DNA from: Akkermansia sp.
Lineage (GTDB): Bacteria > Verrucomicrobiota > Verrucomicrobiia > Verrucomicrobiales > Akkermansiaceae
Reading direction: 5' to 3'
DNA length: 64,000 nucleotides
Assembly (NCBI GenBank): GCA_024405455.1
Contig: JAKSOT010000002.1
Coordinates: forward strand, 166-64,165
Shown here: in pieces, positions 38,637 to 43,123 of the stretch
Layout: each line of letters starts with the position of its first letter
Numbering within the stretch: the stretch's first letter is position 1
Translations under genes and position numbers: made by a program
The notes under the pieces: model-generated
The model's input: only the letters and a program-made list of their open reading frames with translations
What the model was told of the DNA's origin: nothing
The model's database searches: none

Positions 38637-41277
38637 GGCGGTATCGGTTGGGTCGGAAGATGAGGTACACCAGTCCACCCGCCAGCAGGCATGCGAAGAA
38701 CTGCCCGCTGCGGAACACGCCCAGCTCCGCCCACTTGCCGAGCTGGTTCACCAAGAACGCCACCAGGTACGCCCAGGCGGTCATGAAGCCCACCGCCAGC
38801 ATGGTCCAGCGGGAGCTGTGCATCTCTCGCCGTATCGCGGCGCAGGCCGCCACGCACGGAGCGCACAGCAGGTTGAACAGCATGAACGACAGCGCCGCCG
38901 CCCGCGTGCCGAACAATCCCGCGCTTCTGATGGCGCGGGCGATGCCGTTGGCCTCTTGCCCTTTGTTGTTGTCCGTATGTGCAGCCTGCTGGGCGGGAAC
39001 ATCCATGTGCGGGTGTTCATGGAGCCACCAGTGCCAGAGGGCGATGGTGGGCGCGGTGAAGGCGTTGAGGCGCGGCAGGTCGCCGGTGCGGGGCAGGGCG
39101 GTCGTCTCATCGTCCTTGGCGGAGCCGTAGAGCACGCCCAGGGTGCCCACCACGTTTTCCTTGGCAATGATGCCGCTGATGGTGGCGACGGTTGGCCGCC
39201 AATCGCCCCAGCCGAGGGGCGCGAAGACGGGGGCGATGTTGCGCCCGGCGTCCGCCAGCATGCTCTGCTCCACGGCGGGCTTGTTGTGCGCGGTGTCCAG
39301 GAATCGCATGTCCCAGCTGTAGTTGCTGGCGAACCAGATGAACGCGGAGGCGAGGAAGATGATGGTACCGGCCTTCTTGACGAAGGCGCGGCAGCGCTCC
39401 ATGGCGCGGGTGTTGATGCTGTCGCCGCTTGGGCGGTGGTAGGGCGGCAGCTCCATCACGAACGGCGTGTAGCCCCCCGCGAACATGTGCGATTTCCGCA
39501 GGATGAGCCCGCCCAGTATCACGGAGCCGATGCCCGCGAAGTACGCCAGCGTGGCGATGGTGGCATCCTGCCCCAGCACCGCGCCGAAGAGCGTGATGAG
39601 CGGCAGCTTGGCGCTGCACGGGATGAACGTGGTGAGCATCACCGTCATGCGCCGGTCCTTGTCGTTCTCGATGGTGCGGGACGCCATGATGCCCGGCACC
39701 CCGCAGCCCATGGCCACCATCAGCGGGATGAACGACTTGCCGGAAAGCCCGATGGTGCGGAACACGCGGTCCATCATGAACGCCACGCGCGCCATGTACC
39801 CGCAGTCCTCCAGCAGCGCCAGCAGCAGGAACAGCACCGCCATTTGCGGCAGGAAGCCCAGCACCGCCCCCACGCCCGCCACGATGCCGTCCGTCACCAC
39901 CGCCACAAGCTGCGGGCTGCAGTCCATCTGCAGCCGTCCCAGCAGGCCGATGCCGAAGGCCAGCGCGCCCATGGTGGCGAGCCGGAAGATGTAGTCGCGC
40001 CGGTTGGCGCGCCCGTTGAGGCGCATGCCGTGCGGGTTGATGCCGCGGGGCACCGCGCCGTAGCGGTTGGCGTGCGCATCCCCGCGCCACAGCAGGCAGT
40101 ACAGCATGAGAGCCGCGTTCACGGCGTACAGCACCCACATAATGCCCGCGTGCAGCGCTTCCGGCAGGTGCGGGCACATGTACTCCAGCAGGAACGGCGC
40201 CACCGCCAGATACAGCCAGGAGCCCCCGCGCCCCAAATCGTGCAGGCGGCGCAGCGTGGCGGGGAACACCAGGCACATGGCCAGGATGCAGCTGAACATC
40301 ACCATGCTCTCCAGCTGCATGGGCGCATTGCCGATGAACCCGCGCAGCCAGCCCAGCACCACCGGGCCGAACACCACGTCGCTCGCCCAGTCCGTGCCCC
40401 ACTTGCCCACGGTGTTGATGGAAAGGTAGTAGATGCACCACATCACCAGCGCAAAGATGGCGATGCCGAAGACGCGGTGCGTGGCCACGCGGTCGATCTG
40501 CGCGCTGAACGCGCTCGGCTCGCCCGTGCGCTCCACCGCCTGAGGGATGATGTCCATGATGGCGTCGTACCGCCCGCCCGCGATGATGGACGCGATGTCG
40601 TCCCCCAGCTCGCGCTCCACGTCCTCGCGCAGGTGGTCCAGCAGGTGGCAGATGTGGTGGCTGTGCTCCGGGATGAGCCCCAGGTCGTTCTCCAGCAGCT
40701 TCACCGCCTCCCAGCGCGTGCACGCGTGCTCCGCAATGACGCTCTCCAGCGCGCGCTCCACAGCGGGCGGGAAGGGCAGGGGATTGCCCGGTTTCACCAC
40801 CGCGTCGCCCGCTATCAGCTCCCGCAGCTCGCGCAGTCCCTTGCGGTGCAGCGCGCTCACCTCCAGCACCGGGCAGCCCAGCGCCTCCGCCAGCGCCTCC
40901 GGCCTGATGCGCAGACGCCGCCGCTCCAGCAAATCCGTCATGTTGAGCGCCACCACCATGGGCAGCCCCGTCTCCAGCAGCTGGCTGGTGAGGTACAGGT
41001 TGCGCTCCAGGTTGGTGGCGTCCACCACGTTCACCACCAAATCCGGCTTCTCATCCAGCAGGTAGCGCCGCGCCACCACCTCCTCCGGCGTGTACGGCGA
41101 AAGCGAGTAGATGCCCGGCAGGTCCACCACCTCCACGTCCGCGTGGTCCCGCAGGTGCCCGGCCTTGCGCTCCACCGTCACCCCCGGCCAGTTGCCCACG
41201 TACTGGTTCGCGCCCGTCAGCTCGTTGAAGAGGGATGTCTTCCCGCTGTTCGGGTTGCCTGCCAGCGCCACCCTCAT
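38629..41277 (-). CDS. feoB: Ferrous iron transporter FeoB (882 aa) with two insertions
   Basis: GNPNSGKTSLFN, NWPGVTVE, DLPGIYSL, DATNLERNLYL, LNMTD, LEDCGYMAR, GCGVPGIMASR, FIPCSAKLP, PCVAACAAI. Confidence 0.96.
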   Translation of the reverse strand: MRVALAGNPNSGKTSLFNELTGANQYVGNWPGVTVERKAGHLRDHADVEVVDLPGIYSLSPYTPEEVVARRYLLDEKPDLVVNVVDATNLERNLYLTSQLLETGLPMVVALNMTDLLERRRLRIRPEALAEALGCPVLEVSALHRKGLRELRELIAGDAVVKPGNPLPFPPAVERALESVIAEHACTRWEAVKLLENDLGLIPEHSHHICHLLDHLREDVERELGDDIASIIAGGRYDAIMDIIPQAVERTGEPSAFSAQIDRVATHRVFGIAIFALVMWCIYYLSINTVGKWGTDWASDVVFGPVVLGWLRGFIGNAPMQLESMVMFSCILAMCLVFPATLRRLHDLGRGGSWLYLAVAPFLLEYMCPHLPEALHAGIMWVLYAVNAALMLYCLLWRGDAHANRYGAVPRGINPHGMRLNGRANRRDYIFRLATMGALAFGIGLLGRLQMDCSPQLVAVVTDGIVAGVGAVLGFLPQMAVLFLLLALLEDCGYMARVAFMMDRVFRTIGLSGKSFIPLMVAMGCGVPGIMASRTIENDKDRRMTVMLTTFIPCSAKLPLITLFGAVLGQDATIATLAYFAGIGSVILGGLILRKSHMFAGGYTPFVMELPPYHRPSGDSINTRAMERCRAFVKKAGTIIFLASAFIWFASNYSWDMRFLDTAHNKPAVEQSMLADAGRNIAPVFAPLGWGDWRPTVATISGIIAKENVVGTLGVLYGSAKDDETTALPRTGDLPRLNAFTAPTIALWHWWLHEHPHMDVPAQQAAHTDNNKGQEANGIARAIRSAGLFGTRAAALSFMLFNLLCAPCVAACAAIRREMHSSRWTMLAVGFMTAWAYLVAFLVNQLGKWAELGVFRSGQFFACLLAGGLVYLIFRPNRYRHE

Positions 41278-41513
41278 GACACTTCGATGCATGCCGCCTC
41301 CGCCTTGCGCAGCGAGAGCATGTAGCCCCGCACGCATATCTCCAGCGGGTCGCCCAGCGGCGCCATCCGCTTCACCTCAACCTCCGCTCCGCGCGTCAGT
41401 CCCATGTCCAGTATCCTCTGCCGCAGCGGCCCCGTTCCGTTCACGTGCACCACGCGCACGGGCCTCCCCACCTTCGTCTGGTTCAACGTCCTTCCTGTCG
41501 CTCTCTCTGCCAT
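41274..41513 (-). CDS. feoA: Ferrous iron transport protein A
   Basis: LRQRILDMGLTRGAEVEVKRMAPLGDPLEICVRGYMLSLRK; ATGA overlap with feoB. Confidence 0.95.
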   Translation of the reverse strand: MAERATGRTLNQTKVGRPVRVVHVNGTGPLRQRILDMGLTRGAEVEVKRMAPLGDPLEICVRGYMLSLRKAEAACIEVS

Positions 41514-41533
41514 GGCTTGTCTTGTTTGCAACG

Positions 41534-41596
41534 AATGTTAGCCCAGACTAACATTTCGGTCAAGCACAAAAGTTAGTCATGTCTAACTTTTGTGCT
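41534..41596 (-). promoter_or_regulatory. feo promoter with two palindromic operators (GTTAG-N6-CTAAC)
   Basis: aatgttag-cccaga-ctaacatt (41534-55) and agcacaaaagttag-tcatgt-ctaacttttgtgct (41563-96); minus-strand TTGACC-N17-TAACAT overlaps the first palindrome. Confidence 0.8.
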
Positions 41597-41653
41597 GCGC
41601 CGCGCTCCACGAAATGCCTTGCATCGCAGCGGGGGTGTGGTAGAGTAGGAAGC

Positions 41654-43123
41654 ATGGTAACCAAGACGATTTCCGCATTGTGCATGATGGGGCTCAGCCT
41701 GGGCGCGTTCGCCGGGCAGCCGGGGGAGAAGGCGCCCGCCGCGGCGGAGCAGCCGCAGGCCAAGGTGGTGCTTCCGTGGGAGGAGACGGACGCGCAGCGC
41801 GACGCCCGCATGCAGTGGTGGCGCGACGCCAAGTTCGGCATGTTCATCCACTACGGCCTGTACTCCGGGCTGGGCGGCTTCTTCAAGGGGCAGTTCGGCG
41901 GCGGCGAGTGGATTCAGCGCAACCTGCGGCTGGATACCGACACCTACGCGGCGGAGGCCCTGCCGAAGTTCAAGCCGGCTCCCGGCTGCACTGAGGCCTG
42001 GGCGGAGCTGGCCGCCTACGCCGGATGCAAGTACGCCGTGCTCACCACCAAGCACCATGAGGGTTTCGGCCTGTTCGACACCGACTCCACCGACTACTGC
42101 GCCGGCAAGGCCGTGGGGCGCGACATCGTGCGCGAGTACGTCGATTCCTTCCGCAAGCGCGGCATCAAGATCGGCTTCTACCACAGCGTCATCGACTGGC
42201 ACCATCCGTCCTACGACAACACCATCTGCCCGGACCTCTGCTACCCGGAGGACCAGGAGGCCATGCTCAAGCAGAAGGGCATCCCGCGCGACCAGGAGGC
42301 CTACCTGAAATACCTGCACGGCCAGGTGCGCGAGCTGCTCACCAAGTACGGCGACATCAGCGTGCTGTGGTGGGACTACTCCCAGGGCGCCGCGGAGGGC
42401 GACCGCGCCTGGAAGGCCACCGAGCTCATGACCATGGCGCACACCCTGCAGCCCGGCATCATCATGAACAACCGCCTCTACAACCTCTCCGGGTTCGATG
42501 CCTCTCGCGACGGTGAAATCCTGCCCCGCCGCCACGGCGACTACACCTCGCCGGAGAAGCGCATCCCCGCCAAGGGCTACCCCGGCACCGACTGGGAGGC
42601 ATGCATGACTGTCGGCGACAGATGGGGCTACTGCCAGGTGGACCTGAACTTCAAGAGCCCGCAGGAAATCATCGCCAAGCTGGAGGAGTGCACCGCCAAG
42701 AACGGCAACCTCCTGCTCAACATCGGCCCCAGGGTGGACGGCTCCATCCCGGAGCCCCTGGTGAACGTGTTCCGCTGCGTGGGAGACTGGATGAAGGTGA
42801 ACTCACAGGCCATCTACGGCACCCGAGGCGTGCTGGACATCGATCTGCCGGAGGGCGTGGGCGCCAGCATCGCGGGTGAGGAGATGTACGTCTTCCTGCC
42901 CGCCGGAGTGCAGCAGGACTACGTGCTGCGCATCCCCGCGCCCCAGCTGGACAACGTGGCCCCCTCCATCCTCGGCCAGCCCGATGTGAAAGTGGGCATG
43001 CGCCGCGTGGAGGAACCCGGCGAGGACGAGCCGCGCGCGTTCATGGAATTCACCGTGCCCGCCGCCGCCTGGAAGAACGCCGTGCAGGGTCTGCCCGTGC
43101 TCAACCTCACCCACAACCCCTGA
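41654..43123 (+). CDS. Alpha-L-fucosidase (GH29), secreted
   Basis: Signal peptide; WWRDAKFGMFIHYG, LTTKHHEGF, GFYHS..DW, VLWWD (nucleophile), NGNLLLNIGP. Confidence 0.93.
   Translation: MVTKTISALCMMGLSLGAFAGQPGEKAPAAAEQPQAKVVLPWEETDAQRDARMQWWRDAKFGMFIHYGLYSGLGGFFKGQFGGGEWIQRNLRLDTDTYAAEALPKFKPAPGCTEAWAELAAYAGCKYAVLTTKHHEGFGLFDTDSTDYCAGKAVGRDIVREYVDSFRKRGIKIGFYHSVIDWHHPSYDNTICPDLCYPEDQEAMLKQKGIPRDQEAYLKYLHGQVRELLTKYGDISVLWWDYSQGAAEGDRAWKATELMTMAHTLQPGIIMNNRLYNLSGFDASRDGEILPRRHGDYTSPEKRIPAKGYPGTDWEACMTVGDRWGYCQVDLNFKSPQEIIAKLEECTAKNGNLLLNIGPRVDGSIPEPLVNVFRCVGDWMKVNSQAIYGTRGVLDIDLPEGVGASIAGEEMYVFLPAGVQQDYVLRIPAPQLDNVAPSILGQPDVKVGMRRVEEPGEDEPRAFMEFTVPAAAWKNAVQGLPVLNLTHNP

Follow-up and report, generated by a model that had tools for sequence, protein, structure and literature searches.

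The feo locus and its FeoB

We analysed a stretch of 64,000 nucleotides (hereafter the window) from Akkermansia sp. (assembly GCA_024405455.1, contig JAKSOT010000002.1, positions 166 to 64,165 of the forward strand) and describe in it a feo operon whose FeoB carries an additional membrane module, related to the DUF805 family, within its permease. Bacteria take up iron anaerobically mainly through FeoB. An earlier note, made by a model from the DNA letters, had placed a DUF805-like insertion of permuted order inside FeoB at 39931-40320. A Pfam scan finds DUF805 (PF05656) there above its gathering score, and the location stands while the exact ends shift slightly, to 39928-40326.

All the peptides quoted in that note belong to a single 902-codon open reading frame (ORF) on the minus strand (38629-41337) that is open throughout. 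The TGA stop of feoA and an ATG of feoB overlap as ATGA (…GTGTCATGAGGG…), and the feoB start is therefore most likely M21 at 41277, giving 882 residues. Residue numbers refer to this 882-residue FeoB unless the 902-residue ORF is stated.

41274..41531, minus strand: feoA, first gene of the operon (PF04023 FeoA, 75.4 bits)
38629..41277, minus strand: feoB, 882 codons from M21, the open frame extending to 41337 (TIGR00437 and Pfam)

The identity of the protein as FeoB is supported by a score of 514.8 bits against NCBIfam TIGR00437 feoB (cutoff 315.65) and by Pfam matches to FeoB_N, FeoB_Cyto, Gate (twice) and FeoB_C in addition to PF05656. It has a FeoB-type G-domain with G1-G5 motifs (PF02421, 217.9 bits, residues 22-173) and a permease with PF07670 Gate in two stretches, the first at residues 493-584 of the 902-residue ORF, and PF07664 (51.1 bits); feoA is adjacent. 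The protein shares with the canonical Escherichia coli FeoB (b3409) the G-domain with GNPNSGKT, the helical domain, two Gate regions with the conserved GCGVPG and CAPC cysteines, FeoB_C and an upstream feoA. Among solved structures NFeoB domains come closest (E=7.6e-57 by sequence, TM-score 0.87 by fold); the PDB copy, searched by sequence and with Foldseek on the full model, gave N-terminal FeoB domains only and no full-length FeoB template. The feoA-feoB operon is genuine and its FeoB complete, and by analogy with the feo genes of A. muciniphila the variant FeoB would import Fe2+.

An insertion in the TM1-TM2 loop

E. coli FeoB aligns over its full length with the window's FeoB except for about 133 residues without counterpart (residues 318-450, window 39928-40326). 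These residues, with four additional predicted transmembrane (TM) helices, lie in the TM1-TM2 loop, which in E. coli has about 40 residues. The insert follows TM1 and a native post-TM1 segment (WGTDWASDVVFG…GFIG) and precedes TM2 (…DGIVAGVGAVLGFLPQ). The FeoB G-domain is cytoplasmic, and the TM1-TM2 loop is therefore periplasmic. A variable region near the FeoB C-terminus was considered as a second insertion and rejected, as E. coli FeoB has a matching loop. The parts of the insert and its borders, with helices taken from an AlphaFold2 (AF2) model and its predicted local distance difference test (pLDDT) values, are as follows:

40402..40470, minus strand: FeoB TM1, residues 270-292, with the native post-TM1 helix/loop at 40315-40401 (AF2 helix 270-314; aligns with E. 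coli TM1 and loop)
39928..40326, minus strand: whole insert, circularly permuted DUF805 module, residues 318-450 (PF05656; absent from E. coli FeoB; pLDDT 80-94)
40252..40314, minus strand: insert helix a, equivalent to DUF805 TM2, predicted orientation out-in (AF2 helix 322-347, ending in RRLHD; mean hydropathy 1.93)
40219..40251, minus strand: RRLHD-LGRGGS(W) loop, a family-wide DUF805 motif, predicted cytoplasmic (R343, R344, H346, D347 invariant; 3 Arg/Lys in 11 residues)
40180..40218, minus strand: insert helix b, DUF805 TM3, short, 13 residues (AF2 helix 354-366; P361 invariant)
40150..40179, minus strand: outward-facing turn MCPHLPEALH, which with E365 forms E-x-x-C-P-H-x-P-x-x-x-H (0 Arg/Lys)
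40090..40149, minus strand: insert helix c, DUF805 TM4 (AF2 helix 373-396; invariant N387 within the membrane span)
39997..40089, minus strand: predicted cytoplasmic loop, NRYG, 13 residues and GRANRRDY, the permutation junction (7 Arg in 31 residues)
39934..39996, minus strand: insert helix d, equivalent to DUF805 TM1, predicted orientation in-out (AF2 helix 426-448; moved to the front it restores the match from profile position 3)
39859..39933, minus strand: junction LQMDCS (C453), then FeoB TM2, start of the first Gate region (C453 at least 90 % conserved; aligns with E. coli TM2)

The insert is a circularly permuted DUF805 module

PF05656, a profile of 111 positions with a gathering score of 25.7, matches the whole protein with 38 bits and the isolated insert with 48.5 bits (E=1.4e-12) in two stretches. 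All three DUF805 signatures are present (GRANRRDY, RRLHDLGRGGSW and NRYG), and the likeness to DUF805 / YhaH-YhaI proteins extends to the motifs GRxxRxE[YF], RRLHD-G-xSGW and NRYG with hydrophobic spans between them. What differs is the order. The canonical family runs from the N-terminal motif through TM1, TM2, RRLHD and TM3(/4) to NRYG; the insert reads TM2, RRLHD, TM3, TM4, NRYG, a short linker, GRxxRxxY and TM1, and in this native order covers only profile positions 49/50-111 (TM2, RRLHD, TM3/4, NRYG).

When the last 35 residues of the insert (MRLNGRANRRDYIFRLATMGALAFGIGLLGRLQMD) are moved to its front, the profile gives one match over positions 3-111 of 111 with 54.6 bits. Control segments placed in front instead (four shuffles, the reverse, FeoB TM1 or FeoB TM2) give 40.0-42.7 bits, with alignments starting at profile positions 22-49. 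The moved segment specifically contributes 12-14 bits that the controls lack, and we conclude that it corresponds to the DUF805 N-terminal motif and TM1. The same rearrangement in 5/5 diverse homologues extends the match from 49/50-110/111 to 2/3-110/111 with a gain of 4-5 bits, and PF05656 scores 46-58 bits in five other clade members. The order proposed in the earlier note (RRLHD, NRYG, then GRANRRDY) is in this way substantiated. By motif content and profile match the insert is a permuted DUF805 derivative and not a canonical member; it also departs from the family in being embedded in another protein, where DUF805 proteins are free-standing or tandem, and in carrying a C-P-H...H motif in its TM3-TM4 turn that sets it apart from the free-standing DUF805 proteins inspected.

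Predicted topology

AF2 was run on an alignment of 121 sequences (mean pLDDT 77.9). Across the insert it predicts four helices with pLDDT 80-94, in keeping with the several TM helices that had been expected, and it models FeoB TM2 at residues 455-473. The RRLHD loop has 3 Arg/Lys and the NRYG…GRANRR loop 7, and MCPHLPEALH and LQMDCS have 0 each. According to the positive-inside rule the module is predicted to make four passes, out-in, in-out, out-in and in-out, an even number with which the remainder of FeoB keeps its normal orientation.

The model and the loop charges also agree with a DUF805 fold whose old N and C termini are predicted to lie on the same side of the membrane, as is implied by tandem DUF805 proteins with short linkers. 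Such a topology would also account for the permutation. A canonical DUF805 unit of four passes should have both ends inside and would not fit a loop that faces outwards; cut open at its outer TM1-TM2 loop and joined at its old ends, it would start and end outside and could be accommodated there.

Distribution and read support

The best 120 homologues of the window's FeoB, at 56-93 % identity, all carry PF05656. A second search, seeded with a protein from a human-gut metagenome-assembled genome (MAG), essentially retrieved this set again and added 12 proteins, all with PF05656 as well. Over both searches the domain is present in 132/132 returned FeoB homologues, whose identity to the respective query is 55-99 %. 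The human-gut-MAG-seeded search yielded no protein under the name A. muciniphila, and the papers that name the A. muciniphila gene, Amuc_1088, describe no domain architecture for it. In species-representative genomes 122 stretches encode the insert, 80 of which were kept. These 80 are all from MAGs labelled Akkermansia, Akkermansiaceae, Verrucomicrobiales or uncultured bacterium, sampled from horse, rabbit, goat, sheep, chicken and human gut, with a local GC content of 51-66 %.

An exhaustive HMMER search of 1.84 billion cluster representatives found only two FeoB-length proteins that match the whole insert; the remaining matches are free-standing or tandem DUF805 proteins that match the core only. 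This result confines insert-bearing FeoB to one lineage. A profile made from the insert alignment retrieved a single fragment from a 5.8-billion-protein index, a limitation of the word index that makes the clade not countable there.

Absence of the insert from reads or relatives, which the earlier note had named as grounds for giving up the claim, is not what we observe. Besides its occurrence in the homologues and genome stretches above, a 1471-nt read-derived contig covers 39400-40675, including both junctions, with zero differences. Contigs of other independent studies cross each junction, metatranscriptome contigs cover the insert, and no joint skipping the insert was found among the read-derived contigs.

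Origin of the module

Natural tandem DUF805-DUF805 proteins exist; in the representative library they include P0124, P0125, P0128, P0139 and P0149. They share with the insert one contiguous stretch of RRLHD, TM3/4, NRYG, linker, GRxxRxEYW and TM1, and P0124 aligns with insert residues 23-132 in one piece, through the RRLHD and NRFG of its first copy and the GRISRQEYW of its second. The tandem proteins differ from the insert in being full two-copy proteins with a linker of about 20-33 residues, compared to 13 in the insert, and in having no association with FeoB.

The simplest origin would be capture of an internal fragment of a tandem DUF805-DUF805 gene ('permutation by duplication'), since a fragment reaching from one TM1-TM2 loop to the next gives both the observed order and the observed topology. 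The earlier note had left the choice between a circular permutation and a junction of tandem copies. As tandem DUF805 proteins exist and P0124 is contiguous over the NRYG-to-GRxxR junction, the two are probably one event seen from two sides.

The representative library also lists P0126 with the tandem-type DUF805 proteins and contains a 724-residue protein with two DUF805 units and large hydrophobic regions between them. The many tandem members and this two-unit protein indicate a family prone to duplication and fusion. Two further candidate architectures were rejected: P0122 (1402 aa, 19 matched stretches) is a junk repeat translation and P0143 a frameshifted fragment.

Insert and flanks have equal GC content. 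A recent horizontal insertion was rejected on this ground and because the insert is common to genomes of 51-66 % GC. The matching GC content and the presence of the insert in the whole clade make the insertion event an old one, and the module was acquired before a large clade of Akkermansia-type gut bacteria radiated.

Conservation and selection

The mean frequency of the top residue is 0.66 in the insert compared to 0.89 in the permease core, 0.58 in the cytosolic helical domain and 0.55 in the variable loop. The insert is under purifying selection, with omega of 0.03-0.2 in most close pairs. In the window's high-GC subclade (the window, L001-L004 and L020) omega of the insert rises to 0.37-0.8, compared to 0.07-0.2 for the rest of feoB. 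This suggests relaxed or shifting constraint on the insert in that subclade, with omega still below 1.

R343, R344, H346 and D347 (121 sequences), P361, N387 and R423 are invariant, and N404, G407 and R426 are at least 90 % conserved. The residues conserved throughout the DUF805 family (R343, R344, H346, D347, G352, W354, Y356, P361, N404, G407, G422, R423 and R426) all fall on the predicted cytoplasmic side or in helix b. A second group is specific to the clade: E365, C368, P369, H370, P372, H376 and C453 are each at least 90 % conserved, and neither the E365/C368/P369/H370/P372/H376 motif nor N387 or C453 was seen in the free-standing DUF805 proteins inspected.

Natural losses occur within this second group. 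C368 is Phe in L027 and L028, which keep C453, and Phe or Tyr in P0063. C453 is Val in six loci that keep C368 (L046, L048, L051, L059, L061 and L063) and is also replaced, by Val or Ala, in P0120. H376 is Gln in three loci (L046, L051 and L063). L027 and L028 are Candidatus Akkermansia intestinigallinarum / intestinavium. Several species thus keep one Cys without the other, and an obligate C368-C453 disulfide was rejected. A covariation analysis of the insert against the core (mutual information with average product correction) was discarded, as clade markers dominate it and the effective number of sequences (Neff) is 35.

Possible roles of the module

We hold the anatomical description of the insert with high confidence. 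The explanation as a whole, a FeoB with a conserved permuted DUF805 module in its first periplasmic loop, we consider reasonably probable; the mechanistic part of it, in which the module would serve as a built-in accessory subunit, is a best guess that taken alone we hold only tentatively. As such a subunit of the permease, the module would keep the ancestral DUF805 motif cluster at the predicted cytoplasmic face, the side of the FeoB GTPase domain and FeoA, and would have gained a Glu/Cys-Pro-His/His cluster, predicted to face outwards and adjoining the start of TM2. We hypothesize that this cluster would bind Fe2+ (or another soft metal) and would hand it over to the FeoB pore or gate the pore.

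The Glu/Cys-Pro-His/His cluster is chemically suited to Fe2+ binding and, in its predicted position, well placed for it, and its residues are candidate metal ligands. P1B-type ATPases have intramembrane Cys-Pro-X (CPC/CPH/SPC) metal sites, a parallel that we use only as a lead: in both cases Cys-Pro-His would lie where a helix breaks, within the membrane or close to it, and an additional His and Glu would be nearby. The comparison ends there, as the two share no sequence or fold relationship and some members of the clade are without the Cys. Periplasmic metal capture or gating by the module is accordingly put forward tentatively, as a possibility that the conserved motif may point to. The wider proposal, that the embedded module captures Fe2+ and that free-standing DUF805 proteins (YhaH/YhaI) are small accessory subunits of cation transporters, we consider improbable.

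Several observations weigh against an accessory subunit that handles metal. The losses of C368, C453 and H376 described above mean that a metal site using all these ligands is not universal. Conservation is lower in the insert than in the permease core (0.66 compared to 0.89), omega of the insert reaches 0.37-0.8 in the window's subclade, and the fusion is restricted to a single lineage. No solved analogue of the module was found when the isolated insert model was compared with the PDB by Foldseek (best E=2.6), and DUF805 has no assigned role in the literature searched.

The module may instead act through an ancestral DUF805 activity at the cytoplasmic face. The Arg-rich RRLHD/NRYG/GRxxR cluster could there be a binding site for an anionic ligand or a lipid, or a docking site for the G-domain or FeoA by which the GTPase state is coupled to the permease, the outward Cys/His motif being secondary, for example structural. 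The strictest conservation does fall exactly on the family-wide DUF805 motifs, both motif loops are strongly positive and hence predicted cytoplasmic, and some members have lost C368, C453 or H376. Such a role nevertheless does not account for the rise of a new motif, with conservation of at least 90 %, on the opposite face and in the FeoB-embedded form only, and covariation gave no interface, with too few effective sequences at a Neff of 35. We regard it as possible, at odds of the same low order as those of metal capture or gating.

Alternatively, the module may be a structural passenger, a lipid-facing bundle kept for the folding, stability or oligomerisation of FeoB with no metal or regulatory role. 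The modest conservation of the insert relative to the core, the raised omega in the window's subclade and the confinement of the fusion to a single lineage are all compatible with this explanation. A spacer would be expected to keep its hydrophobicity and not RRLHD, NRYG, GRxxR and C-P-H, yet the polar and charged DUF805 motif residues are invariant despite divergence to 55 % identity, and omega is 0.03-0.2 in most lineages. We therefore judge a passenger rather unlikely. Finally, since the organism is of the metagenome type, we considered whether the feature could be a chimera of assembly or binning, or a mobile element that recently disrupted feoB. Nothing in favour of this was found, and it is refuted by the open frame, the GC content equal to the flanks, the zero-difference contig and independent junction contigs with none skipping the insert, and the presence of the insert in every homologue returned and in the 122 genome stretches.

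The feo operon and its regulation

Beyond feoA and feoB the locus contains two further features with conserved positions:

37334..38491, minus strand: OprB-family outer-membrane porin gene, directly downstream of feoB (PF04966 OprB, 48.3 bits)
41537-41552 and 41572-41587, no strand assigned: two palindromes GTTAG-N6-CTAAC upstream of feoA, putative metalloregulator operator

feoA lies upstream of feoB in 76/80 related loci and an OprB-type porin gene downstream of it in 70/80. This conserved position makes the porin gene a probable third member of a feoA-feoB-porin operon, perhaps giving Fe2+ a dedicated way through the outer membrane. Compared to the canonical Feo system, the operon has no feoC and an OprB-type porin gene follows feoB.

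The GTTAG-N6-CTAAC palindromes are the only 2 matches in the window, where 0 are expected by chance, and sit between feoA and a divergent fucosidase gene. In 71/71 related loci the core TTAG-N6-CTAA lies 250-450 nt upstream of the G1 motif of FeoB, compared to 6 matches in 793 kb elsewhere in those loci. This positional pattern makes TTAG-N6-CTAA a probable operator in the feo promoter, conserved and serving a metalloregulator, plausibly one of DtxR or Fur type. Iron limitation induces the feo cluster of A. muciniphila, which also co-varies with a regulator of the DtxR family (PMC12552655), and we accordingly take this type of feoA-feoB operon to be iron-responsive. An Rfam scan of 36-44 kb found no riboswitch, giving only sub-threshold chance matches.

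The divergent gene (41579-43123, plus strand) encodes a GH29 alpha-L-fucosidase (PF01120, 256 bits), which suits a mucin- or glycan-degrading Akkermansia-type organism. On the other side of the porin gene, 35733-37304 (plus strand) encodes a protein of 523 residues that matches no Pfam family, has a tail rich in Ala and Lys and is present in only 4 related loci. A 953-codon frame runs antisense to feoB (38464-41325, plus strand), together with several other long antisense frames; these were rejected as genes, being without protein-family support and expected in DNA of 67 % GC.

Relation to known systems and significance

The literature searched mentions DUF805 only in lists of genes, as part of the E. 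coli y-ome and, through YhaH, as a host factor for two phages. The same literature holds no description of DUF805 together with FeoB, of the insertion, of the permuted order or of the topology logic. Some members of the DUF805 family lie behind orphan DUF805 RNA motifs. Automated Pfam annotation already tags these FeoB proteins with PF05656, and the co-occurrence of FeoB and DUF805 is therefore already visible in databases. What we describe is a real transporter variant combining FeoB and DUF805, of which the insertion, the order and the topology logic are, relative to the literature searched, newly described.

Bacteroides fragilis and Porphyromonas have FeoA-FeoB fusion proteins (PMC8980893). 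Like the FeoB described here, these are lineage-specific changes of Feo architecture in gut anaerobes. They differ in joining two Feo components end to end on the cytoplasmic side, whereas here a foreign membrane domain lies inside the permease and feoA remains separate.

The fusion is a clean case of domain insertion via circular permutation in a polytopic membrane protein, in which topology dictates the permutation that is allowed. A natural FeoB with a four-helix module and candidate ligands at its outer face would be a useful comparison for mechanistic work on the entry to the pore, and the natural ligand variants (L027 and L028, and the L046-L063 group) are ready comparisons for metal binding. 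The carriers are gut relatives of Akkermansia, a group of applied interest, and if the FeoB of the cultivable A. muciniphila (Amuc_1088) has the insert, genetics would be straightforward. For DUF805, a large uncharacterised family, the fusion offers, within this analysis, a first connection to a defined transport process and supplies concrete residues for mutation. Coming from a single lineage-specific fusion, the link between DUF805 and metal uptake is weak and remains only a clue to what the family may do.

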